Shown here piece by piece: positions 355 to 14,533 of a stretch of 14,671 nt of DNA. Source of the DNA: a virus (taxonomy: Duplodnaviria > Heunggongvirae > Uroviricota > Caudoviricetes); IMG/VR virus record IMGVR_UViG_2654588181_000003, one strand, 5' to 3'. Position 1 is the stretch's first letter. Each line of letters opens with the position of its first letter. Under the pieces are notes generated by a model. That model saw only the letters and a program-made list of their open reading frames with translations, was not told the DNA's origin and searched no databases. Position numbers and translations under genes: made by a program.

Positions 355-1775
355 TTCTTGCCATTGGCGTAACTTCGTGAATTAGGATGGTAGCCCTATT
401 TTGCCTTAAAGTTCCGCTTGTTACGAGCTTATACAGCGATTAATTATTATCTGATTTTAGTGTTTTCGTTCAGCTCAGCAAGTGCAATGACTCATGGGGT
501 AAGTGCTTTGTAACAGGGTTGTTGATGTCAGTCGTTGGCCCTCAATGGAGTCACGGTCATAGGCATAATTGCTGTATAGCTGTTAATGTTTGTCTGGGTG
601 AATTTCTACTATTCGGACTAACACCAAGTGAGTTCCATACTACATAACTGTGAGAATTTTCTGTACCCTTCACTCTATCCTCTTCTTGCATATTTACAGG
701 AAGATAAAGCAAAAGATACAAAACTTTGTAATCAAAAAACTGTCTTAATGTACTTACATCACGTTTAGTTATTAAATTTTTTGTCATGGTGAAAATTTTT
801 ACTTGGTCATTAAAATTCATCGGGTGTTAATATTCTAAACGAATAGGATGTCAAGCTAAAATGATGTGTCAAGTTGTTTGTAAAGTGAGAGGTTTATTTT
901 TGGAAGAAATGCTTAAGAGAAGTATATATGATATTTGCCTGAATATAATTATTGATATGCAAGGTTGGCAGAGGTTTTCTTTCTTTTCTAACCGAAGGGA
1001 AGAAAAGCAAGGGGAACTCGAAGAAGCAAGCGCAGCGGCTTCGCAGAGTTAGCCCTTGCTTCTCTTATAATTGGCATTATTCATTCAAGAACAATAGGAT
1101 CTTCGCTTGTACAAGCGAAGCTATAATAAAAACAATCAATTAATTATTTTTAAAGTATTAAACAAGAACCTATTGACATTCATAAAATACAAGTTATTTA
1201 TAATGTATGCCATAAATAAAAAGTTTTATGTCATATGTATCCTGCACTATGTGCAGTTAATGTACCACTTGTCCCATAGATGGGAATATTGGAAAGGTTA
1301 CTTTGTTTTGAAGTAGCCTTTCGTCCTTCAATATTAACGATTACTTATTGCTATTACCAAGTCCAGTCGAATCGAAGAACATCTTTTATCTGAAACGACT
1401 CCTAATACCCGGTTAAAGCCACAATATCTCTCGCATACGTAGACCAAAGAAAAATTATGATATTAAATATGTGATTTTTTTTAGTGTTAAGTTGAATAAT
1501 TAAATACTGGAGAGTTTTCTGTGCACTACCAATTGCTGGTTCATCTGTTCTGCCGCTGATGTTTCTGACGAATCTCCCGGTGACACAGAACTGTCCCTCT
1601 CTACCAGCCTTTATTCGACTCAATGTCCGGCTGCTGATACGCAGTTATCCCTTCGTATCAATGACTTACACTTAAACGTAATGCTTTGGTTGCTGGCGTA
1701 TCTGACAGCATCTTCGGCGTGAAGGTCGTTGTGTAAGTATACTTCTTGGTTTATTTAGGCTATATAAAACCATGA

Positions 1776-2672
1776 CTATGACTTGCTGTTTTCAGTAAGA
1801 GTCTTATCATCCAAAGAATTTATTCTAGAAATTCTTTTTAACTCATTAAGATAATCAACCTCGTTTTCTAAGAACCAATGAAGAACTTTAGAATTGCCAA
1901 GTAATTTATTAATATATGACTGGATTATAACGAATTTCAACATATCTGAACCATACTCGGTTTGAAGCTTTTTCGTTTCTTCCGAAGTTGTTGCCATTTC
2001 TTGTTCCAGACGAAGTATGGTTTTTTTTATGTCCTTTTTATAGGGAGTGTTTTTCCCTTTATTTACTATCATCGATGCCGGTGTTGCATCCAAGATGCTC
2101 ATTGCAAATTTTTTACTATAATTATCAAAATTAATCATTGTACCGACTGCTTCAATTTGGCGAATTGGCTTCATTTTCCTCAAAACGTCAAATGTAGCCT
2201 TAGGTATAGGTTTATCAGAAAGTTTCGCAATTACACTTGAATCTATGCCGTTCATCACATTCGCTTTATCTTTTATGGCATCAACAGATATGCCCAAAGC
2301 AGCACTAAGTTTTTCAATTGATACTTTTGCCAGAGACTTAATTATCATTCTATGTTCTTCAACTACATTTATATGATTCACTTGTTTGTTAGGAGTGAAA
2401 GCATCATCTATGCTCGAAAGTATACATGGAGCTTTTTCTATACCTAAGTCTTTTAAAGCCTCAACCCTTAAATGGCCATCAAGTATCTTAGTGACATCTT
2501 TATCTTTGTCATAGAATACTATTATTGGTTCAATAATACCTAAGCTTTCGATAGAGGTAACTATTTGATGATATTTATGGCTTCGCTTTACGTTTTCTAA
2601 TAATTCCTTAGATGGAATTAACTTATTAGTTTCCAGGTAAATAAAATTATCGCCAAAACGTATCTGAATCAT
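1776..2672 (-). CDS. ParB-like (ParB/sulfiredoxin-fold) domain protein, 298 aa, distal gene of the three-gene operon
   Basis: ORF-track protein contains GIIEPIIVFYDKDKDVTKILDGHLRVEAL (ParB N-terminal box-like segment) and a helix-turn-helix-like stretch VSIEKLSAALGISVDAI. Start ATG overlaps the upstream stop (ATGA at 2669-2672). Visibly AT-rich coding sequence. Confidence 0.65.
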   Translation of the reverse strand: MIQIRFGDNFIYLETNKLIPSKELLENVKRSHKYHQIVTSIESLGIIEPIIVFYDKDKDVTKILDGHLRVEALKDLGIEKAPCILSSIDDAFTPNKQVNHINVVEEHRMIIKSLAKVSIEKLSAALGISVDAIKDKANVMNGIDSSVIAKLSDKPIPKATFDVLRKMKPIRQIEAVGTMINFDNYSKKFAMSILDATPASMIVNKGKNTPYKKDIKKTILRLEQEMATTSEETKKLQTEYGSDMLKFVIIQSYINKLLGNSKVLHWFLENEVDYLNELKRISRINSLDDKTLTENSKS

Positions 2673-3565
2673 TTTAATACCTCTTTGTTTACTGGGGTTA
2701 ATATCTGAGATGGTAGTTCTGAAAGATTCTCTTGTTCAAGTATATGTTGAAAGCTTTTATTCATCATTATGATGTTAAAAATCTCATTTACTATTAGTAG
2801 GTTGGTTTTTATGAATTTTGAGTTGTTATAAACAGATTTATGTTCAGCGATACTATTTTCATAAAGCTCAATCAACTCCTCTGCAGTCATCCTTTTTGAT
2901 GGTTTGTGATAATAAAATCCGGCTGCTTTTGCACCTTTATTCCCAACTGTTCTTTGATTTAGAATGTGTTTTATCTTTATAATGTCCCGACTTTTTATTA
3001 ATTTTTTATCATATGCTTCGGTAAGAATATCTTGTGCTTCCTCAGTTTCACATCTTGCAAATTGCACTGCGAGATACAGAGGCAAATTACCCCGTTCGAC
3101 TGCTGAGAGAAGTTTATGCTCTCCCTTATCAAGTAGCATATTAATACTGCTCACCCAGTTCGATGAATATCCAGTAATCTCACTTATTTCGGAGTCTGAA
3201 AGTCCTCTGATTTTCATGTCTTTAATCACCTGTAATAACTCATTAGAACGTGGTCTTCTCCTTGCAATGTTTTCAACTAAACTCATAACGTAAGCATCTT
3301 CTTCTGATACATCTCTTATAATTGCTGGAATAATAGTTTCACCTAATGCAACGAGAGCCTCTATTCTCCCTTGACCACAAATTAAAGCATATTTGAAATC
3401 GCCTTCATCAATAGCTCTTACGCTTATAGGCTTGCTTAATCCTCTTTTTTTTATGCTTTCCTTTATTTCTTCATGCACTACCTTATTTCTTGTTCGTGGG
3501 TTAAGAAATTTTATTTTTGCAATCTCAATTTGAATTATTGGGAATTCATTTTTTTCAGGCAGCAT
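2669..3565 (-). CDS. ParB/Spo0J-like N-terminal domain protein with helix-turn-helix, 298 aa, middle gene of the operon
   Basis: Motifs in the translation: IAKIKFLNPRTR, GLSKPISVRAIDEGDFKYALICGQGRIEAL, LVENIARRRP (ParB arginine-patch-like), and GLSDSEISEITGYSSNWVS (helix-turn-helix). SD-like GAGGG lies 6 nt upstream of the ATG at 3565. The start overlaps the recombinase 3' end by 11 nt. Confidence 0.7.
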   Translation of the reverse strand: MLPEKNEFPIIQIEIAKIKFLNPRTRNKVVHEEIKESIKKRGLSKPISVRAIDEGDFKYALICGQGRIEALVALGETIIPAIIRDVSEEDAYVMSLVENIARRRPRSNELLQVIKDMKIRGLSDSEISEITGYSSNWVSSINMLLDKGEHKLLSAVERGNLPLYLAVQFARCETEEAQDILTEAYDKKLIKSRDIIKIKHILNQRTVGNKGAKAAGFYYHKPSKRMTAEELIELYENSIAEHKSVYNNSKFIKTNLLIVNEIFNIIMMNKSFQHILEQENLSELPSQILTPVNKEVLK

Positions 3566-5111
3566 ATAGTTCCCTCACTTTCATGCGAGTAATAATTTGT
3601 AGAAGTTTATCAAGATTATCAAATCTATAGAGATCTAATCGAATGTTGTTTGTTTCCGTCATGCACATTTTATTATATTCGTTTTCAATCTTTGGTATGA
3701 TATAAAAATCAAGAGGTGAAATATTTTGTGAATTCATTCGTATAACAATTGTTATGTCTGCTTTCTGTGAGTTATCAAACCGGACTTTCCATCTAAGTTT
3801 ACCTGATTTCATATGTATGCATTTAGTAACAAGGACGGAAATTAAAAACTCATCATTGATGTAAAGCATTGGGGCATATTTATACTCGTCTATATGACAG
3901 TTACTTTTTAAAATTTCACCCTTAAAATCCTCAATTATCTCTGAGTAAAATGATCTTAGTGCTTCATTTATTTTGAGATAGCTGTAATCATGTTCTGGCT
4001 TATAACCAATCAAAGTATATGCTCTTAAAAGACCACCAAATCGGGTTCTATAAACAGAAGATGAAGGGCCTGTATCATCTTCATCAATGATAAAGCCTGA
4101 TAGTTTTCCATTAGATTCTAATTTTTGTTTTAGTTTTTCTAATAGATCTTCATTAGTCAAATGAATGGATCGGAGCTGAATTATTTCTTGAGCTTTATTG
4201 TATTTTTTCTTTGAAATAATAGGTTTATATGCCTTGTCACATCTAACCCATTCATGTTTGGGGTTTTTTACAAGCCTACTTTTTAATTTAGATGAGGTTT
4301 TGTTATATATGTTGTTTCCAATATATTTTTCATTTGTCAAAATTTGATGTATTTTTGCACGAGTCCATAATGTTCCATTTTCTGCAGGTATGTTCTGTTC
4401 ATTTAATCTCTCAGCAATAATGAATTCTGGGACGTTATTATCTATAAAGAGATCATATATTCTATTTACAATTTTTATTTCATTTTTTGGTCCCGGAATT
4501 AATATTACCCTATCTGTTTGAATACTCTTTCTTTTGCGGAAACTCAATATTTCTTTAGCTATGCCATTTTCGTCTACTAAAAGACGTCTCAGCCCATAAC
4601 CAGCCATACCGCCTTGATGATAACCAAGCTTTATTAAATTTACTTGCCCTATAAATACCTTTTCAGATAGATTCCTGCTGTGATATGCAGCACTAGATCT
4701 TTTTATATTCAGTATAACAGAGGACTCTAAAGGGAAATCTTTAGTGGGTATAGGTTCGGAACAATATATAAGATCTACACCATTTCTCTCAAATAGAAAG
4801 GAATAATATGCCGCTTCATCACTATTTTGAAAACGACCAAAACGGCTCACATCATAAAATAATACAGCCTGTATATCTATTTTCTTTTGTTCTACATCGC
4901 TAAGTAACTGCTGCAAAGAATGCCTGCCTACGATACTGACTCCGCTCTTACCTGCATCATCGTAGGTATAAGCGATTTCCATATTGTTCTTTTCAGCATA
5001 ATCTTTGATATATTCGGACTGATTATGTAAAGAATATTGCTGATGGTCGGTAGACATCCTCAAGTACTGCGCGACCCTAACTCTATGATTTTTTTCATTT
5101 TCGCTAGCCAT
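3555..5111 (-). CDS. Large serine recombinase (resolvase/invertase catalytic domain plus recombinase domain), 518 aa
   Basis: N-terminus RVAQYLRMSTDHQ carries the catalytic-serine motif (YxRxSTxxQ). DDAGKSGVS, LQQLL and DVSRFGR match the serine-recombinase catalytic core. The roughly 370-aa extension is typical of large serine recombinases (phiC31 Int / TnpX / Ccr class). GAGG lies 8 nt upstream of the ATG. Confidence 0.8.
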   Translation of the reverse strand: MASENEKNHRVRVAQYLRMSTDHQQYSLHNQSEYIKDYAEKNNMEIAYTYDDAGKSGVSIVGRHSLQQLLSDVEQKKIDIQAVLFYDVSRFGRFQNSDEAAYYSFLFERNGVDLIYCSEPIPTKDFPLESSVILNIKRSSAAYHSRNLSEKVFIGQVNLIKLGYHQGGMAGYGLRRLLVDENGIAKEILSFRKRKSIQTDRVILIPGPKNEIKIVNRIYDLFIDNNVPEFIIAERLNEQNIPAENGTLWTRAKIHQILTNEKYIGNNIYNKTSSKLKSRLVKNPKHEWVRCDKAYKPIISKKKYNKAQEIIQLRSIHLTNEDLLEKLKQKLESNGKLSGFIIDEDDTGPSSSVYRTRFGGLLRAYTLIGYKPEHDYSYLKINEALRSFYSEIIEDFKGEILKSNCHIDEYKYAPMLYINDEFLISVLVTKCIHMKSGKLRWKVRFDNSQKADITIVIRMNSQNISPLDFYIIPKIENEYNKMCMTETNNIRLDLYRFDNLDKLLQIITRMKVRELYAA

Positions 5112-5393
5112 GCACGAAACCTCATGGATGATTCAATACAATGTAGTGGATAAAATTGATCAAATTTTAACCGAATTCAACTGTTTTATCATTGATTAGA
5201 GCGAATTTGGTAGATCTTCGAGGTGTATGATAATCGAGAAGAGATGTGAATTATTTAGCTGATATGACCGACAGCTTTCGTTATGTGGACTCAATGTCCC
5301 CATTTGTAAATGGCTATGCTTAGTCCACATAGGTTAATGGTGTGATTATTAATTCTTTAACTAAATCAAGATAGTTAATCCATCATGGGAGAG

Positions 5394-6623
5394 TTATGCG
5401 GCAATAACTTTGCATTTTTGAGACGAAACATAGTCACTCCACCATTGCATGAGAACCACCCGTTCAGTGAGATACTCTGCACGATTGTAGGCTGCAATTA
5501 TTTCATCTTTCTTCGAGTGGGCAAGGGCGGCTTCTAAGACATCAGTCCTAAACTTGCCAGACTCCTCAGCAGCCGTTCTAGCAATGGATCGCATACCGTG
5601 AGCTACAAGCTCACCTCCGAAACCCATACGGATTATGGCCGCATTAGCTGTTTGTTCATGCATGTGATTGAGTGGAGCTTTGATACTGGGGAACACCCAC
5701 TCTCTATGCCCGCTGATGACTTTCATTAAATCCAAAACTCGCAAAGCTTCTTTGCTCAGTGGAACTTTGTGAGGCTTCTTCATTTTCATAAACTCCGCCG
5801 GGATGTTCCACATGCCAGTTTCAATATCAATATCTGACCATCTTGTGCGAACAGCTTCACCTGGGCGAACCCATGTGAGAAGTTGCCACTCAATCAGTAG
5901 CCTTGTTTCCAAACGGATAGAAGCATTGTTTAGAGCAACCAAGAAGCGAGGGAGTTCGGAAGGGGGTAATGCTGGCATATTCTGTTTTTTTGGCTTGCTG
6001 AACCGTTGCCCCAGGTTGTCTGCCGGGTTGAATTCTATGAGTTCTTCTGTTGCTGCATAGCGGAAAATTTCATTCAGGCGGGATATGATGCGGCGAAGTG
6101 TTTCAAGGACACCTCGTTTTTCTATGGGTTCTAAATGCTGTTTAAGCATTTTAGGGCGAATCTCCTTAATTGGGGTATCACCCAATGTGGAAAAGATATT
6201 TCTCTCTAGGCTTCGCCAGATGTCGTTAGCATGATCTTGGGAGATGCCTGACGTTTTGACTTTCTCATCAAGCCACTTCTTGGCTACTGCTTGAAATGTA
6301 TGTTCCGTGGCATCTTTCAGTGCATTGGCTTTTTGGTTGTTATGAACTTGGGGGTCTATACCATTTGTAAGCAACGACAAGTATTCATCACGTAAAGCTC
6401 GTGCCTTCGCAAGTGTAAGGTGAGGATAGGTTCCTAAGCTCACCTTAGTTCGCTTTTTGGTCACAGGCACTGCATATCTGAAATACCAATTTTTCTTCCC
6501 TCCCTTCGCCAGGGGAGCGATTCGCAACAGCAAACCATCGCCGTCAAAAAGGTTAACCTCTTTTTCGGCAGGTTTGGTGCTTTTGATTTCAGTGTCAGTG
6601 AGCTTCTTAGCGATTTTGGCCAT
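5394..6623 (-). CDS. P4-type tyrosine integrase (CP4-57 IntA-like), about 409 aa from the internal Met
   Basis: MAKIAKKLTDTEIKSTKPAEKEVNLFDGDGLLLRIAP...KNWYFRY is the characteristic P4-family integrase N-terminus. I take the start at 6623 (MAKIAKK, preceded by GAGGG 7 nt upstream) rather than the ORF-track start at 6704. It lies about 165 nt downstream of an ssrA 3'-end copy on the same strand. Confidence 0.85.
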   Translation of the reverse strand: MAKIAKKLTDTEIKSTKPAEKEVNLFDGDGLLLRIAPLAKGGKKNWYFRYAVPVTKKRTKVSLGTYPHLTLAKARALRDEYLSLLTNGIDPQVHNNQKANALKDATEHTFQAVAKKWLDEKVKTSGISQDHANDIWRSLERNIFSTLGDTPIKEIRPKMLKQHLEPIEKRGVLETLRRIISRLNEIFRYAATEELIEFNPADNLGQRFSKPKKQNMPALPPSELPRFLVALNNASIRLETRLLIEWQLLTWVRPGEAVRTRWSDIDIETGMWNIPAEFMKMKKPHKVPLSKEALRVLDLMKVISGHREWVFPSIKAPLNHMHEQTANAAIIRMGFGGELVAHGMRSIARTAAEESGKFRTDVLEAALAHSKKDEIIAAYNRAEYLTERVVLMQWWSDYVSSQKCKVIAA

Positions 6624-6721
6624 GTTTGGGACCCTCGATTTTAGGACCCATCTTCGTGGGTCCCATTCAGGGTGCCATAACTCGTAGTTCTCAGCAATTC
6701 TCACTAGACTACAATAGACGT

Positions 6722-6755
6722 AAAAAAGCCCGCAGAGCTTGTGCTGTGCGGGCTT
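6722..6755 (-). terminator. Rho-independent terminator on the minus strand, between the ssrA-end repeat and the integrase
   Basis: Minus-strand reading AAGCCCGCACAGCACAAGCTCTGCGGGCTTTTTT: a 7-bp GC-rich stem (GCCCGCA/TGCGGGC), a short loop and a U tract. Confidence 0.5.
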
Positions 6756-6789
6756 AGTAGACTTTACTGAACTTCAGTACATCAATATT

Positions 6790-6824
6790 TGGTGGAGCTG
6801 GCGGGAGTTGAACCCGTGTCCGAA
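6790..6824 (-). other. 35-nt copy of the tmRNA (ssrA) 3' end; att-site direct repeat, not a complete gene
   Basis: Minus strand reads TTCGGACACGGGTTCAACTCCCGCCAGCTCCACCA, matching the E. coli ssrA 3' terminus as I recall it with one mismatch. Similarity to ssrA stops immediately 5' of this segment (plus coordinates above 6824). Confidence 0.75.
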
Positions 6825-6899
6825 TATTTGCAATGCGTTGATTTATAACGAATAAAATTTAAAGTTGGTTCTTACGGCTCTTTTGCGGATATTTTACTA

Positions 6900-7718
6900 T
6901 CAATTCGTAGTCCTGCCATATTTACGTTTTTTCTTGCGGTTTGTTTCTGGTTTCTTCTCTCGGTTATTGTCTACTTTTTCATGTATATCCATATTGAACC
7001 AAGAAGCATGCGAAACCTCACTTAATGGAAATATGATACTGGTATCAACTCCATCAAGATCGTTGTAATCATTTGAAAACAGGACCCTTAGTGTGTCCTT
7101 GTCCCTGTAACCAGATATGATTGGGCTAATAGAAATTTCAAGGTTAGGGCCTTGTTTTTCGTTTGGCTCACTAATCATGTTAACTGTTCCGACATATACT
7201 TTGCGGCATTTCAGGCTTATCAGTACCGGTCTGTTTGTAGTCGCTGAATCAAAGAATAGCTGACCAAGTGAGCCATCAGACAACAGTTTTTCCAACTCAT
7301 TAAGCCTGATTAGTTGCTTTGCGAAATTGATAGAAATTGCATTATTGGATGCAGAACTAATAGTTTTTGCTGCCACAAACATACGAAATTTGCATATCTG
7401 CAACCAAATAAAAGCAACTCCACAAGTCGCCACTGATAGCAGGATGAGCCATGATGTTATCCTGTTTTCTTTAGGGTCTGCACTACCATCAATAAGATGT
7501 GATACCCATGTGACCAGTGTAAGGCTTGGTATAAAGTACTTGGTTGCATACGCCAGCACGACTGCAACAATGAACGAGTACACACCGTACGTGGCCACCT
7601 TCATATAGAGAAGCTGGCCGTCGTAACGGTGGAGTCGATAGAATAATTTGATGTTATGGGGCGATGTAACCAGTAAGGATCCACTTACTAAAAGTGGAAT
7701 GATCAGCAATGCAAACAT
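6900..7718 (-). CDS. Hypothetical integral membrane protein, 272 aa; three predicted N-terminal transmembrane helices, soluble C-terminal domain with a lysine/arginine-rich tail
   Basis: Hydrophobic segments FALLIIPLLVSGSLLV, YGVYSFIVAVVLAYATKYFI and ITSWLILLSVATCGVAFIWLQI; C-terminus NNREKKPETNRKKKRKYGRTTN. The ATG at 7718 is 3 nt after the upstream gene's stop codon (7722-7724). No recognisable family. Confidence 0.55.
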   Translation of the reverse strand: MFALLIIPLLVSGSLLVTSPHNIKLFYRLHRYDGQLLYMKVATYGVYSFIVAVVLAYATKYFIPSLTLVTWVSHLIDGSADPKENRITSWLILLSVATCGVAFIWLQICKFRMFVAAKTISSASNNAISINFAKQLIRLNELEKLLSDGSLGQLFFDSATTNRPVLISLKCRKVYVGTVNMISEPNEKQGPNLEISISPIISGYRDKDTLRVLFSNDYNDLDGVDTSIIFPLSEVSHASWFNMDIHEKVDNNREKKPETNRKKKRKYGRTTN

Positions 7719-7721
7719 TTG

Positions 7722-7970
7722 TTAGTCGTCATTGTCCATTGAGTTAGCTTTAGCGGCTGCAACAGCTTTTGCATCCTGCTCGACGAATTTTCTAGCTGCT
7801 TTCCTAAGCTGAGTGATTTTTTCTGGGTCAGTAGATGGGTCTACAATAACTGCACCACGCCCTACGACCTTGATGTTTTTAACACCAGATTTGTTCAAAC
7901 GATCGGCCATGGCTTGTCCGCCTTTGACCAAATCATTCAGCCCAAACATCTTCATGACTAGTTCTGACAT
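7722..7970 (-). CDS. Hypothetical small soluble protein, 82 aa, first gene of the two-gene operon
   Basis: A near-consensus SD (AGGAGG) lies 5 nt upstream of the ATG at 7970. The protein is hydrophilic and alanine/lysine-rich with an acidic C-terminus (SMDNDD). No recognisable motif. Confidence 0.55.
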   Translation of the reverse strand: MSELVMKMFGLNDLVKGGQAMADRLNKSGVKNIKVVGRGAVIVDPSTDPEKITQLRKAARKFVEQDAKAVAAAKANSMDNDD

Positions 7971-8265
7971 AAAGACCTCCTTTCAGTCCCCCCAATGTAT
8001 CCTTTTGAGGCATTTATTGCTCCCCGCAGAACGGGGCGCGGGATTTTACCATAATCTACGTACTGGCTCCAAGATTTCCCGCGTGTTCCTAGTACTAGGA
8101 CAGCTGCCTGAGTACCAAGTTCACCTATAACATATATACTTGGTTCGAATTTTTGCAAGGTAAAAAGTGCCTTATGTTTAAGTATGTATGATGTGGATAT
8201 GACGAACATAACCACATCACAAATAACTTTTTATCAGGTTTCAGTGGCTATTTGTTCGGGCAGCA

Positions 8266-8920
8266 TCAAGCCTGTTTTGTATCATTAGTATTTTTAGCGG
8301 TATGTCCGTCATATGCAGCAAGGTAACTGCCATAGTGACGAAATAGCATTTCTGGTCCCTTATGGCCCATCTGGCCTGCAAGCCAGAACAGGTTCGCACC
8401 ACGGCTGATATGGCTGGTGGCGAATGTATGCCTGGTCTGATATGGGTTACGGTACCGGATACCTGCTTTACGTAAGGTTGGTATCCACGCTTTTTTCCTT
8501 ATCGCATCGGCGCTGGCCCACGGTTTGTTTGTCTTTGGATCTTCAAAGACAGTAGCATCCTTCATGAATGTAAATGGCTTCTGATTTATCAGCGCCAACA
8601 TTGCCTCTTCTGTCAGTTCAACTTTACGAGTACCGGCTTTTGTCTTTGTTCCTTTGATAACACCGACAACACTTGCGCTCTGGACATGGGCAGTTTTTCC
8701 AACAAAGTCGATATCACGCCATCGAAGGGCACATAATTCAGAACTACGCAGGCCTGTATGTATAGCGAACCGGAACAGATTTTCCCATTGTTTGTTTCCG
8801 GCTGCTGCTAGTAATGCATCAACTTCTGCTGGTGATAGCGGATCAACCACGTAGCTGCTTTCTGCTTCTGACTTATCACTTTGGTAGCGCGAAGCAGTTA
8901 CCAACGATACGGGGTTAATT
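8266..8920 (-). pseudogene. Tyrosine integrase (phage/lambda-type) C-terminal catalytic-domain fragment; the N-terminal half is missing
   Basis: The translation ends with the catalytic region ...ELCALRWRDIDF...RKVELTEEAM...RHTFATSHISRGANLFWLAGQMGHKGPEMLFRHYGSY (R...HxxR...Y signature). The first ~40 residues of the ORF-track protein are just the antisense of the adjacent head gene, so only about 215 residues are integrase-derived. Confidence 0.7.
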
Positions 8921-10733: not shown

Positions 10734-11078
<345 letters not shown>

Positions 11079-11439
11079 TCATTGCAAGGGCTCACAACCA
11101 GTAGTGTTGAGAAAACCATCGGAGAAATGAGGCTAAGCCTTTGAATTTACATAGTACAAAAAAGATACTTTTCCTCATAATGTGAGCTAATTTTATGTTT
11201 CGTTTGATGATTGGACCGGTCTCGAAAACCGTAGACACATAGTATGCGTTAATTTATGAACAAACTACTTGTCTGCTGTTTTTCTGTCATTAGTCGTATA
11301 TAGAATGATTCTCTATGCCTAACAAAGCATCACCAGTGCTAGATTACGTTGTAGTCACTGTTTAAATATCCAGATAAAACATTTCCTTCTGGGTTGAATG
11401 AGTGATAAAGTTTCACCCATTAGACCCCTTGGAGGAATT

Positions 11440-12873
11440 ATGTCTGAATTTGAAGTGTTGGCACAGCATCTGCTGAAGGAAGCCGAGGCGGAAGAAAAGC
11501 TGCGACAGGAAAATGATAAAAAGCTTATCGAGAAAGTGCTGGAAATCTATGATCAGAAGTATGTGGCTGAATTACTGAGAAAAGTCGGAAAAAATGAGTG
11601 GAGCCGTGAAACCATTAACCGCTGGATTAATGGCAAGTGTTTACCAAAATCGTTGACTTCAGTAGAAGAGTCTCTTCTGCGTAAGATGCTACCAGAACCA
11701 CCTGCAAACCATCCGGAATATGCTTTCCGCTTCATTGACTTATTTGCTGGAATTGGAGGGATACGGAAAGGTTTTGAGGCCATTGGAGGCCAGTGTGTTT
11801 TTACCAGTGAATGGAATAAAGATGCTGTGCGTACATACAAGGCCAACTGGTTTAACGATGAACAGGTGCATAAATTCAATCTCGATATTCGGGAAGTCAC
11901 GCTGAGTGATAAAACCGATGTATTGGAAACGGATGCTTATGCATATATTGATGAGCATGTGCCGGATCATGATGTGCTTCTTGCGGGGTTCCCGTGCCAG
12001 CCATTTAGCCTTGCTGGTGTTAGTAAGAAAAACTCACTTGGTCGTGCGCATGGTTTTGAATGTGAAGCACAAGGAACACTTTTTTTTGACGTGGCACGTA
12101 TTATACGAGCAAAAAAACCGGCAATTTTTGTGCTGGAAAATGTCAAAAATCTGAAGAGCCATGATAAGGGTAAAACTTTCAAAGTCATTATGGAGACCCT
12201 TGACGAGCTGGGCTACGAAGTTGCCGATGCTGCAGAAATGGGAAAAAACGATCCAAAGATTATCGATGGGAAGCATTTTTTGCCTCAGCATCGTGAACGT
12301 ATTGTTCTGGTCGGATTTAGACGAGATCTGAATATTCACAAGGGGTTTACCTTGCGTGATATCAGTCGTTTTTATCCGGAACACCGCCCATCATTTGGTG
12401 AATTGCTGGAGCCTGTAGTCGACAGTAAATATATACTTACGCCAAAACTATGGGAGTACCTTTATAACTACGCCAAAAAGCATGCAGCCAAGGGGAATGG
12501 TTTTGGCTTTGGGTTGGTCAATCCTGAGAATAAGGAAAGCATTGCACGCACACTTTCTGCCAGATATCACAAAGACGGATCAGAAATTCTTATTGATCGT
12601 GGTTGGGATATGGCAACGGGAGAGGCTGACTTTATGAATGAGAGTAATCAGGCTCGTCGACCACGCAGGCTGACTCCCCGAGAGTGCGCACGCCTTATGG
12701 GATTTGAAAAACCTGGAGGGAAACCATTCCGTATTCCGGTTTCAGATACTCAGTCATATCGGCAGTTCGGTAACTCAGTTGTGGTGCCAGTATTTGAAGC
12801 TGTTGCCAGACTTCTGGAACCCTATATCCTCAAAGCTGTTTCTGCTGATGCTGGTAAGACTGGGCAGCCTTGA
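11440..12873 (+). CDS. ecoRIIM: DNA cytosine-5 methyltransferase, Dcm / M.EcoRII family (predicted CCWGG specificity), 477 aa
   Basis: GGAGG lies 3 nt upstream of the ATG at 11440 (MSEFEVLAQ...). The protein carries [17 protein letters not shown] (motif I, AdoMet binding), [11 protein letters not shown] (motif IV, catalytic Cys), FVLENVKNL (motif VI) and [10 protein letters not shown] (motif X). It is closely similar along its length to E. coli Dcm/M.EcoRII as recalled. Confidence 0.9.
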
Positions 12874-12907: not shown

Positions 12908-14116
12908 CTATGATAGTTCAGCGTAAAGCTCTATCAGCTCAGTAATGAATGCTCCGAGCGTTATTAATTCTTCTCTAACTGCTTCTGGGTATTTTTTATG
13001 TAAAGTTGATGGTACAACGAGTCTGACACCCGCATCTTTCATTTCTCGGTATTGTGCTGAAGAAACACCTTCTTGCAGTGTAAATAAATGTACCTGATGG
13101 ATTTTATCTGCTTCATTCAGTATCTGACGCCAGCGATCTTTGCAGGTGGTCTTTACTGCCAGCATACGTAAGTTTTCTACAGGAAATTCAACGTTATGAT
13201 ATGCCTCTGCTGAAGGAAACAGGAAATCTGGTTTTTTATTACCTTCAGTAACTGCCTGAGTGGAGAAATGCCGTAGTCCGTGCTCGATAAAAAGCTTCTC
13301 TAGGTGAAGTTCAAGTGATTTGCCTGCCCTTGATTTACGTCGATTACTGACAGAGTTGGCTAATGCAATAAACTCATCTACAGAATCGAATCCTTTCTTA
13401 ATAATATCAATAACATGTAATTCCTCGACGAGTAGAAAAATATCATACTCGACACGCCGACGGTCAATCAGTTGCTCATCTGGATCCTTGGAGTTTTTAG
13501 CATAATGGCCAGCAGCATATTGAATAATTTCGTTTCCAGAAGGAAAACGCTTCTTCCAGTCTTCAGGAATAACATATTTATGATTTACTGGAGTTTGCTG
13601 AAGAGACAATCCGCCCAAAATTTGTCCGGCAGGGCCGGAAATTAGGGTTCCAGGTATGATTTCGCCAATAGCAGACTCGATGATATCCTCTTCATCGGGA
13701 TTGACGCAGACCCATATATCTACCTCGGAACAGTCAGTGTTCTGTTCGTTTAACCTGAAAGCAAGAATTGTGAGGGCTCCTGTATTTTCAGGGTTCTGTA
13801 ATGGACTTCCTCTCCCCCAGCGCGTAATTCTTTTTTCGTTTCGGGTCTTACCAAAATAACGGTTGTTGTAATAAATTGCGCGTGCTTGGGTATCAGGGCA
13901 ATCATGGGATGATACATGCGCAGTAAGGAAGACTGAAGGGTTCAGTTCGCGAGTATGATTGATAGATGGAAAAAGCTTTTCAACGATATTTGAGGGGATA
14001 TAAAGTCCGACCTGATGGCCACCTGTTGCGCCTGTGTCGTTTGCAGAAAGGCGTTTGATGTAGATAAAGTAATTCCCGCTTGCGATATCAAGCAGCCAGT
14101 TATGAAAAACCGACAT
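12908..14116 (-). CDS. ecoRIIR: EcoRII-like type IIE restriction endonuclease (CCWGG), 402 aa
   Basis: The translation from the second Met (MSVFHNWLLDIASGNYFIYIKRLSANDTGATGGHQVGLYIPS...) matches EcoRII as I remember it nearly end to end, including the N-terminal effector-binding domain and the C-terminal catalytic domain. AGGGA lies 5 nt upstream of the ATG at 14116. Convergent with the methyltransferase, as in the EcoRII system. Confidence 0.9.
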   Translation of the reverse strand: MSVFHNWLLDIASGNYFIYIKRLSANDTGATGGHQVGLYIPSNIVEKLFPSINHTRELNPSVFLTAHVSSHDCPDTQARAIYYNNRYFGKTRNEKRITRWGRGSPLQNPENTGALTILAFRLNEQNTDCSEVDIWVCVNPDEEDIIESAIGEIIPGTLISGPAGQILGGLSLQQTPVNHKYVIPEDWKKRFPSGNEIIQYAAGHYAKNSKDPDEQLIDRRRVEYDIFLLVEELHVIDIIKKGFDSVDEFIALANSVSNRRKSRAGKSLELHLEKLFIEHGLRHFSTQAVTEGNKKPDFLFPSAEAYHNVEFPVENLRMLAVKTTCKDRWRQILNEADKIHQVHLFTLQEGVSSAQYREMKDAGVRLVVPSTLHKKYPEAVREELITLGAFITELIELYAELS

Positions 14117-14193
14117 ATACATCCCTTTGTTAACATACAGTCAGGGTTAACATTTTTCCATAGTTATAGATAAGCGGCTAGGAACTTAAGGGA

Positions 14194-14227: not shown

Positions 14228-14533
14228 CACTCGAGAGCCGCGGCTCCTTTGCGTATCCTTTTTTGTCTCCTCACCGTCTGGTCGGTGTCCTGCTGAGACT
14301 GCTAACTTCCTGTTTTTGTTGGTGTTGTCCTTACACCGTCCAATCATGATTGGTGGGCTGGCGGAGTTTGAATAAATATTATATTGCTTTGATTTTTAAC
14401 GATTTTGTTTAATTCAGTTTTTGTGCGTATACCTAATCGTATACCAATGGCTGTAAGTTAATGTGAAATGAAAGCGCATTTTTACTTGGATTGATGCTAT
14501 ATCGTACAGGAAAAAAATTTTTTTTCGAAAGAA

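Follow-up and report, generated by a model that had tools for sequence, protein, structure and literature searches.

Large serine recombinases such as PhiC31, Bxb1, SPbeta SprA, TP901-1, CcrAB and TnpX share a serine catalytic domain, with its constellation of Ser and Arg residues, and a 'recombinase' domain, and a zinc-ribbon/coiled-coil module normally gives such enzymes site recognition and control of synapsis. ParB, Noc, KorB and VirB, the cytidine triphosphate (CTP)-switch proteins, are built from a ParB/Srx N-domain, a helix-turn-helix (HTH) and a helical C-terminus. Both families are well understood, and they are not known as partners. We analyzed a stretch of 14,671 nucleotides from a virus record (IMGVR_UViG_2654588181_000003, Caudoviricetes; this whole stretch is called the window) in which three consecutive genes, hereafter the trio, join the two families. 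One product has the catalytic and recombinase domains of the large serine recombinases, and the other two, ParB1 and ParB2, share the N-domain, HTH and helical C-terminus of the CTP-switch proteins. The trio forms an accessory module that is autonomous and exchanged horizontally, and is neither a partition system nor the integration machinery of the island that carries it. Its superfamilies are known; the combination, in the absence of ParA, of two orphan ParB paralogues with a recombinase of the large serine type that lacks the zinc-ribbon/coiled-coil module was not found described. The three genes are, with lengths in amino acids (aa):

3555-5111, minus strand: serine recombinase gene, 518 aa, Pfam Resolvase (PF00239) and Recombinase (PF07508)
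2669-3565, minus strand: ParB-like protein 1 (ParB1), 298 aa, Pfam ParB_N and RepB
1776-2672, minus strand: ParB-like protein 2 (ParB2), 298 aa, Pfam RepB and weak ParB_N

Genes and proteins of the trio

The recombinase stop and the ParB1 start overlap by 11 nucleotides (nt; 3555-3565), and ParB1 and ParB2 overlap in an ATGA (2669-2672). A preliminary description of the window had given these open reading frames (ORFs) with their lengths, strand and coupling, and the coordinates and both overlaps were reproduced; the domain identities that it assigned to the three genes were confirmed by Pfam profile matches. It also took the block to be AT-rich and foreign-looking, in agreement with a GC content of 0.29-0.37 in the trio versus 0.44-0.47 in the adjacent integrase gene and 0.50-0.54 in the prophage remnant. 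Finally, it recognized no named system here. A literature search that included full text and protein accessions likewise found no description of the trio, and there was no PADLOC match for it; ParB2 has as its sole PADLOC match the ParB-like N-domain of a Type II methyltransferase (MTase) model (2.3e-07). In NCBIfam, the trio proteins have just sub-threshold, domain-level matches to CcrB, parB_part, Noc and RepB.

The recombinase matches PF00239 at 7.7e-22 and PF07508 at 6e-22. Its nucleophile is S20, within the motif RMSTDHQ, and the catalytic residues Y16, R18, S20, D87, R90 and R93 are invariant across the 36-59 homologues aligned. Conservation reaches across the C-terminal half of the protein, which carries the motifs LSGxIIDE and PSSSxYRxRFGSLLRAY. 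Matches in sequence and profile searches of the PDB were confined to the catalytic and recombinase domains of TP901-1, TnpX, SPbeta SprA and PhiC31, and the profile search gave none past residue ~320. An AlphaFold model (predicted local distance difference test, pLDDT, 68.6) superposes on the SprA, Bxb1 and PhiC31 integrases across ~330 residues only. Within residues 326-518, no PF13408 match for a zinc ribbon, no CxxC pairs in the alignment and no coiled coil were found; for this C-terminal half, Pfam and the PDB gave no significant match and Foldseek no credible structural one. The half does show a sub-threshold resemblance to PF18780, a homing-endonuclease-associated repeat, in both Escherichia coli (E. 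coli) and alphaproteobacterial proteins; the C-terminal 190 residues comprise a weak homing-endonuclease-repeat-like helical motif (the PSSSxYRxRFGSLLRAY segment) and a beta-rich domain. The name 'large serine recombinase' given in the preliminary description therefore holds for the N-terminal 330 residues, while the defining zinc-ribbon/coiled-coil module is absent, so that the protein is akin to the large serine recombinases yet short of one feature of the phage-type large serine integrases.

ParB1 matches Pfam ParB_N (1.6e-13) and TIGR00180, and consists of a ParB N-domain, an HTH and a RepB-like C-terminus that align with structures of Spo0J, ParB and Noc. Its GERR box reads GQGR and its ENxxR box is kept; among 31 homologues, G64, G66, R67, E98, N99 and R102 are invariant. 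ParB2, which matches Pfam RepB at 6e-24, combines an N-domain of degenerate ParB type (DGHLRxEA) with an HTH and a long helical C-terminus of the RepB type. D65, G66, R69 and E71 are invariant in this protein, the DGHLR motif being constant and the ENxxR box degenerate, and the structures nearest to its AlphaFold2 model (pLDDT 74.6) are Noc, ParB bound to CTP or CDP, and KorB. A BLASTP alignment of ParB1 with ParB2 covers just 63 residues, and profile comparison finds the two homologous across 251 columns at 17% identity (hhalign probability 95.8%). By sequence, the two proteins are ancient paralogues. Their lengths are unequal in other clades, for example 303/305 and 288/292, and thus their equal length in E. 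coli is incidental. The preliminary description had taken the identical length to suggest a duplicated heteromeric pair; the two proteins are homologous over their full length, but as ancient paralogues only, with lengths that vary between clades.

Distribution, carriers and neighbours

Trio DNA is present in 661 of 5,426 complete E. coli genomes (~12%), at one or two places per genome, and all 663 places are chromosomal; PLSDB holds no plasmid that matches the trio at the DNA level. Near-identical copies occur in Escherichia, Klebsiella, Salmonella, Cronobacter, Enterobacter and Citrobacter. More distantly, relatives of ParB2 are found in at least 446 of 100,044 species-representative genomes, chiefly of Rhodobacterales and Rhizobiales, plus Enterobacterales, which places the trio among the more widespread conserved gene modules for which we located no description. 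The order recombinase, ParB1, ParB2 is kept in ~76 of the 80 best species-level loci, with overlaps of 1-11 nt, and reciprocal lookups from the recombinase side recover the same unit. The gene-neighbourhood comparison proposed in the preliminary description thus finds that the three genes travel together across Proteobacteria. Purifying selection on each of the three is strong, with ratios of nonsynonymous to synonymous substitution (dN/dS) of 0.045-0.114 between the window and variants of 94% identity.

By tblastn, 90 of 72,556 plasmid records have a relative, mostly rhizobial megaplasmids, including pAtC58 of Agrobacterium fabrum C58. In IMG/VR, 56 of 2.9 million contigs contain the trio, mostly at provirus edges; in ~25 of these 56 it lies 1-4 kb from the provirus end and is followed by tail genes on the opposite strand, that is, in an accessory zone. 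Phage records gave one unverified match in 50,697, and together with the provirus-edge position of the viral contigs this led us to reject a phage-borne module. NEBExpress (NZ_CP053599.1, 1803415-1807315), an E. coli B laboratory derivative, carries the trio at 99.8% identity, so that the system is open to study in common expression hosts and may already be there unnoticed.

The window places the trio behind an integrase gene and close to a copy of the ssrA 3' end:

5394-6704, minus strand: P4-type tyrosine integrase (RefSeq coding sequence 5394-6623; Arm-DNA-bind_3, Phage_int_M and Phage_integrase; NF007246)
6790-6824, minus strand: 35-nt copy of the ssrA 3' end, 97% identical; attachment (att) site of the carrier island, with a partial Rfam match to transfer-messenger RNA (tmRNA)

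This setting, a P4-type integrase at the ssrA hotspot, had been recognized from the letters alone, and it is upheld by the Pfam and NCBIfam matches and by placement in complete genomes, which puts the whole block in an ssrA island array. In strain MLI105, the same integrase directly abuts ssrA. ARAGORN did not find an ssrA gene in the window. Reference ssrA-region homology stops ~20 nt into the gene, and for this reason the true ssrA is probably separated from the window by another island. A further ssrA-like 3' end, of divergent sequence (~14349-14375; reverse complement TTCAAACTCCGCCAGCCCACCA), was seen towards the right margin of the window, and a partial match to the small RNA IsrM (55 bits, far under the gathering score) upstream of the integrase (6722-6866).

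The P4-type integrase is the vehicle of the trio and not one of its components. The spacing of integrase and trio is identical in E. coli, Klebsiella, Salmonella and Cronobacter. Among ~1,150 E. coli genomes with this or a related ssrA integrase, ~620-660 have the trio, while related integrases (80% identity) in ~500 E. coli genomes stand without it and have unrelated genes downstream. Synonymous divergence (dS) of the integrase, compared with the trio, varies between 0.06 and 0.83. Because related integrases lack the trio and the dS of integrase and trio varies, we regard the trio as modular, optional cargo of the first slot; on these alignments, it has evidently recombined onto divergent integrase alleles. 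In a second type of island (type B), homology is lost 50 bp past ParB2 at a 244-bp integrase 3' fragment, which is followed by Gabija-like genes or TIGR04141/Hxs. The fragment shares 81% identity with the upstream integrase and 74% with another lineage; it comes from a third lineage, and the type-B arrangement therefore reflects tandem islands fused by deletion. An insertion of the trio into an integrase gene was considered and rejected, given the origin of the fragment and the lack of any uninterrupted 'empty' version among the sequences found.

Other carriers differ in what surrounds the trio. It is the sole cargo behind a P4-type integrase in Dickeya, follows an integrase and a Fic gene in Salmonella, and adjoins MobA/TraD mobilization genes and a Type III restriction-modification (R-M) system in Raoultella and Buttiauxella; many trio islands adjoin tRNA genes. 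Four kinds of carrier can be told apart: tRNA/tmRNA integrase islands, mobilizable islands, prophage ends and rhizobial megaplasmids. In one Raoultella island (locus L091, 4456-7113; L092, 308-2966) the trio stands directly after pilS and a shufflon-type pilV, the place that the Rci recombinase has in IncI plasmids.

The DNA around the trio in E. coli comprises three parts:

5112-5393, minus strand: leader, 282 bp from the integrase stop to the recombinase start, conserved
1725-1775, minus strand: 3' flank of the trio, conserved 50 bp with a unit of a variable-number tandem repeat (VNTR) and the palindrome AAGTATACTT
980-1724, minus strand: 'type A' tail, ORF-poor, with nested inverted repeats at 1000-1066

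The leader accompanies the trio in every E. coli-type context. It contains an inverted repeat (5148-5192) that overlaps the sole good promoter-like site upstream of the recombinase, for which a promoter scan places the -35 element at 5192-5187 and the -10 element at 5169-5164, and a 50-bp quasi-palindrome (5282-5331). Both repeats are confined to the E. coli clade and were not seen in other Enterobacterales, and the quasi-palindrome was rejected as a general recombinase site on this ground. On the other side, homology to the variants of 94% identity stops at 1725/1728, just past the palindrome AAGTATACTT (1735-1744), and the two island types then diverge. Directly after the ParB2 stop, we noted a hexanucleotide VNTR, (ATGGTT)n, with one copy in the window (1768-1773), five in strain 58-3 and ~14 in strain 2020CK-00188 (the L090 and L089 equivalents). 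The type-A tail includes a perfect 20-bp palindrome, CTTCGCTTGTACAAGCGAAG, at 1101-1120. It is absent from type-B islands and is thus optional; it could serve as a binding site or transfer origin, or encode an RNA. Positions 980-6824 are 96.9-99.7% identical to loci in Salmonella and Cronobacter (L102, L104). In the Klebsiella loci L100 and L101 (97.7%) an IS3 element interrupts the tail at 1628; the match runs only from 1628 leftward, and in L101 also covers 980-1113 beyond the IS3.

Alphaproteobacterial units carry additions of their own. Directly after ParB2 lies a ~197-nt element (L024, 4811-5007, and 37 other loci; alignment A8) whose conservation is above that of coding DNA. Its consensus fold has seven helices and 45 pairs, with 98.5% of cells paired, and 15 of the 45 pairs show compensatory changes versus 5.9 expected (0 of 500 shuffles reach 15, and slid controls give 1-5). 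Many of its changes from C-G to U-G are compatible with the sense strand only. Rfam has no family for the element, and neither E. coli nor other Enterobacterales yielded a counterpart; it is likely a new structured RNA linked to the trio. Upstream of the recombinase is a divergent HTH-like ORF of ~130 aa (MSFPKKGKFFP...WTGANEKTVKNWFSG; minus strand at L079, 6993-7391, and L098, 6083-6490, plus 23 loci), with no significant Pfam match and no counterpart found in the E. coli leader. It is a probable regulator. In 8-9 alphaproteobacterial units, a ParDE-like pair is found upstream. On its right side the unit stops exactly after a terminal hairpin in at least 40 loci with many different flanks, and unit DNA is 75-93% identical between genera. 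Three loci hinted at terminal inverted repeats or target duplications, a candidate set aside since it was not general: in the alphaproteobacterial units, terminal inverted repeats reach 11.4 of 18 matches versus 11.1 in shuffled controls.

We then compared the neighbours of the trio, judging any enrichment of defence genes qualitatively, by locus, and not against a genome-wide background. In the window itself, an intact R-M pair lies beyond the prophage remnant:

11398-12873, plus strand: cytosine MTase of an EcoRII-like Type II R-M system (PADLOC 4e-230)
12908-14122, minus strand: 404-aa endonuclease of the same system (PADLOC 4e-234)

In E. coli type-B islands, the neighbours are a Gabija-like nuclease and helicase and TIGR04141/Hxs, and in other Enterobacterales they include Type III R-M, AbiTii and Mrr/ScoMcrA nucleases. 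Cargo beyond the 980-6824 core varies, from Mrr/ScoMcrA to a UvrA-like ABC protein with two ThiF proteins, an MTase and DUF4928, to HNH_5/DUF5677/DUF6602. On pAtC58 the unit is flanked by AbiE and, on the other side, Fic, and in other Proteobacteria McrBC and TerB with BrxC/D-like genes stand next to the trio. A scan of 121 flanking ORFs from ~25 alpha- and betaproteobacterial loci with Pfam and PADLOC found DRT-UG5, pAgo and partner, Type I, III, IIG and IV R-M, dGTPase, PDC-S24, HKD-Snf2 and WYL among the defence genes; it also shows transposases and integrases, and found no family common to the loci. When flanking ORFs of 97 loci were clustered, the partners that recurred were a small divergent ORF (25 loci), P4-type integrases (15 loci) and the ParDE-like pair (8-9 loci).

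Several features of these neighbourhoods are recorded here in their own right. Between the prophage remnant and the R-M genes of the window, a 99-aa ORF (10734-11033, minus strand) has a LEM-3-like GIY-YIG nuclease domain (Pfam 1.9e-13). In the type-B loci L002 (9529-14552), L004, L005 and L089, the trio is followed by the His-Xaa-Ser radical-SAM genes hxsDBCA with 'sporadically distributed' TIGR04141 or Gabija-like genes. Klebsiella L101 (15773-20091) and Cronobacter L104 (15071-19389) carry a UvrA-like ABC ATPase and two ThiF/E1-like genes, then a DNA methylase and DUF4928, which looks like an uncharacterized defence-type cluster. A Fic-family gene lies beside the trio in three unrelated lineages (Salmonella L093, 6385-7002; pAtC58, L098, 9965-11146; an alphaproteobacterial metagenome genome, L163, 8374-9396), with a different orientation each time; the adjacency could be coincidence or a functional link. 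The slot from the ssrA att copy to a truncated integrase (6820-8288) holds two minus-strand ORFs, of 272 aa (6900-7718) and 82 aa (7722-7970), and in strain CFSAN061772 the equivalent slot holds DarT/DarG (L001, 25449-26765). The 272-aa protein has an N-terminal sequence that looks membrane-spanning; neither product has a significant Pfam match, and the larger has no PADLOC match. This apparent cassette swap suggests that the two genes may form an uncharacterized toxin-antitoxin or defence pair.

What the trio may do

We tentatively favour a reading in which the trio is possibly an inter-element conflict or defence module whose ParB-like proteins direct or control the recombinase. We do so because the trio is optional for its carriers, rides on four kinds of them and sits in cargo slots among defence genes; as far as gene content can tell, the neighbourhoods favour a role in defence or exclusion. 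ParB1 and ParB2 would act jointly, probably as a heteromer, as nucleotide-switch, sequence-specific DNA binders of the Noc/KorB/ParB type. The pair would repress its own promoter via the inverted repeat of the leader, load on target DNA, and recruit or license the serine recombinase, with the outcome that a competing replicon (a phage, a plasmid or a rival island) would be cleaved or rearranged. Since the recombinase lacks the zinc-ribbon/coiled-coil module for site recognition and synapsis, it would need the ParB-like partners for targeting. The more specific proposal is a new class of element-borne immune or exclusion system, in which heteromeric ParB-like nucleotide-switch clamps recognize foreign DNA, load on it and deliver the recombinase, which has no targeting module of its own, as an effector that breaks or rearranges DNA, and in which Alphaproteobacteria additionally need the ~200-nt RNA from the 3' end of the operon, to provide specificity or a scaffold or to act as a regulator; in this full form we think it rather unlikely.

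Several points weigh against a role in conflict or defence. No target site of the trio was identified; PADLOC-DB v2.0.0 has no match for the recombinase or ParB1; and we know of no defence system with a serine recombinase effector. Guilt by association is weak, because defence islands also gather mobile-element debris. Lastly, E. coli B strains are permissive for T phages, and the presence of the trio in NEBExpress, an E. coli B derivative, therefore argues against broad anti-phage activity in laboratory conditions. If the trio does serve defence or exclusion, it was likely overlooked because its domains are read as 'mobile-element genes'. The trio could show how ParB-type clamps target a serine recombinase that has no site-selection module, which would be relevant to the fields of recombinase tools and of ParB/CTP switches.

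A doubtful but serious alternative is that the trio is a recombination or maintenance module of its carrier, with an architectural or regulatory ParB-like pair and a recombinase that resolves, excises, inverts or stabilizes the element. The recombinase active site is intact, the trio is always on or beside mobile elements (tRNA/tmRNA islands, MobA/TraD genes, prophage ends, megaplasmids), and some islands consist of integrase and trio alone, as in Dickeya. The conserved cis DNA, namely the leader palindromes and the type-A tail with its 20-bp palindrome, is likewise consistent with such a module, as is the ~200-bp conserved region beside the genes in Alphaproteobacteria, sometimes with an upstream ParDE pair. 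That arrangement recalls the parCBA-parDE stability region of RK2/RP4, where a serine recombinase operon with accessory proteins lies next to ParDE, a likeness seen in the 8-9 alphaproteobacterial units with the pair. In RK2, however, the protein called ParA is a small resolvase and that called 'ParB' a nuclease with no relation to the ParB/Srx fold, and the system is plasmid-borne with a defined res site. Moreover, close integrase islands manage without the trio, its GC content is sharply unlike that of the carrier integrase, and it seldom occurs on plasmids, the replicons for which resolution and partition are most important. Searches turned up no paired recombination sites, the candidate palindromes lack conservation from clade to clade, and the alphaproteobacterial region resembles a sense-strand RNA, with variable loops and G.U-type substitutions, rather than protein-binding half-sites.

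It is improbable that the trio, with its leader and 3' flank, is a small mobile cassette inserted by its own recombinase and regulated by the ParB-like proteins. Such a cassette would fit the sharp, context-independent ends in E. coli (1725/1728 and the integrase stop), the precise right end of the alphaproteobacterial units, the identity of unit DNA between genera and the very large size of the recombinase family (more than 6,500 clusters at 90% identity). However, terminal inverted repeats stay at the level of shuffled controls, no hairpin motif matching the right end was found at the left unit end, and no empty site for the trio was found. Genomes hold one or two copies, and where there are two these are divergent; the terminal hairpin has a loop of variable length, unlike a serine-recombinase crossover site, and the recombinase lacks the zinc-ribbon/coiled-coil module for att recognition. 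Among candidate att sites, the palindromes at 5282-5331 and 1735-1744 are not a matching pair and are not conserved outside the E. coli clade. The nested integrative element put forward in the preliminary description thus finds neither paired att sites nor terminal inverted repeats nor an empty site to support it.

Very improbable, and effectively excluded, is an ordinary partition or multimer-resolution system of the plasmid ParB type that became stranded in the chromosome: both small proteins match ParB_N, RepB and parB_part and bear the RefSeq label 'ParB/RepB/Spo0J family partition protein', but they score far under the equivalog cut-offs for RepB, Noc and PRTRC ParB, no ParA was found among the window ORFs, the recurrent neighbours in the 97 loci or the most frequent flank families, and their relatives on plasmids are few and mostly on megaplasmids. 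As candidates for parS, the inverted repeats at 5148-5192, 5282-5331 and 1101-1120 are not conserved across clades. The suggestion that the ParB-like proteins are partition factors falls with the missing ParA, the small share of plasmid records and the near absence from phage genomes.

Comparison with described systems

Measured against ParABS, the trio has the ParB N-domain and HTH, and lacks both ParA and residence on low-copy plasmids (0 of 663 E. coli places). IS607 and Tn4451/TnpX elements occur in multiple near-identical copies with defined ends, whereas the trio occupies one or two places per genome and has no terminal inverted repeats. The large serine integrases rank as the best sequence and structure matches of the recombinase; unlike them, it has no zinc ribbon or coiled coil, is always co-encoded with two ParB-like genes, and no attP/attB pair was found for it. 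Among the CTP-switch proteins ParB, Noc, KorB and VirB, the likeness extends to the GxxR and ENxxR boxes, which ParB1 retains. In contrast to those proteins, the two ParB-like proteins have no ParA partner, always occur as two divergent paralogues and have genes coupled to that of a recombinase; in place of the GERR box, ParB1 has GQGR and ParB2 has DGHLR, and no conserved parS-like site was found.

ParB/Srx-fold proteins with a DGxxR-type motif serve inter-element conflict and defence (PMC10853773, PMC12839542). The ParB fold of the trio proteins is like that of the Osa fertility inhibition protein, DndB, DpdB and the N-domain of GmrSD, with their DGxxR-type motif. These are, unlike the trio, nucleases, NTPases or regulators that have no recombinase partner, and ParB1 and ParB2 differ from them in retaining the full HTH and C-terminal architecture of the ParB type. 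In its position, the trio resembles the defence slots of P4-type islands and prophage ends, since it takes the first slot after the integrase or the accessory zone of the prophage end, with defence systems alongside. Unlike the catalogued cargo of these slots, it has no catalogued match, and within its sub-lineage it varies less than the cargo downstream.

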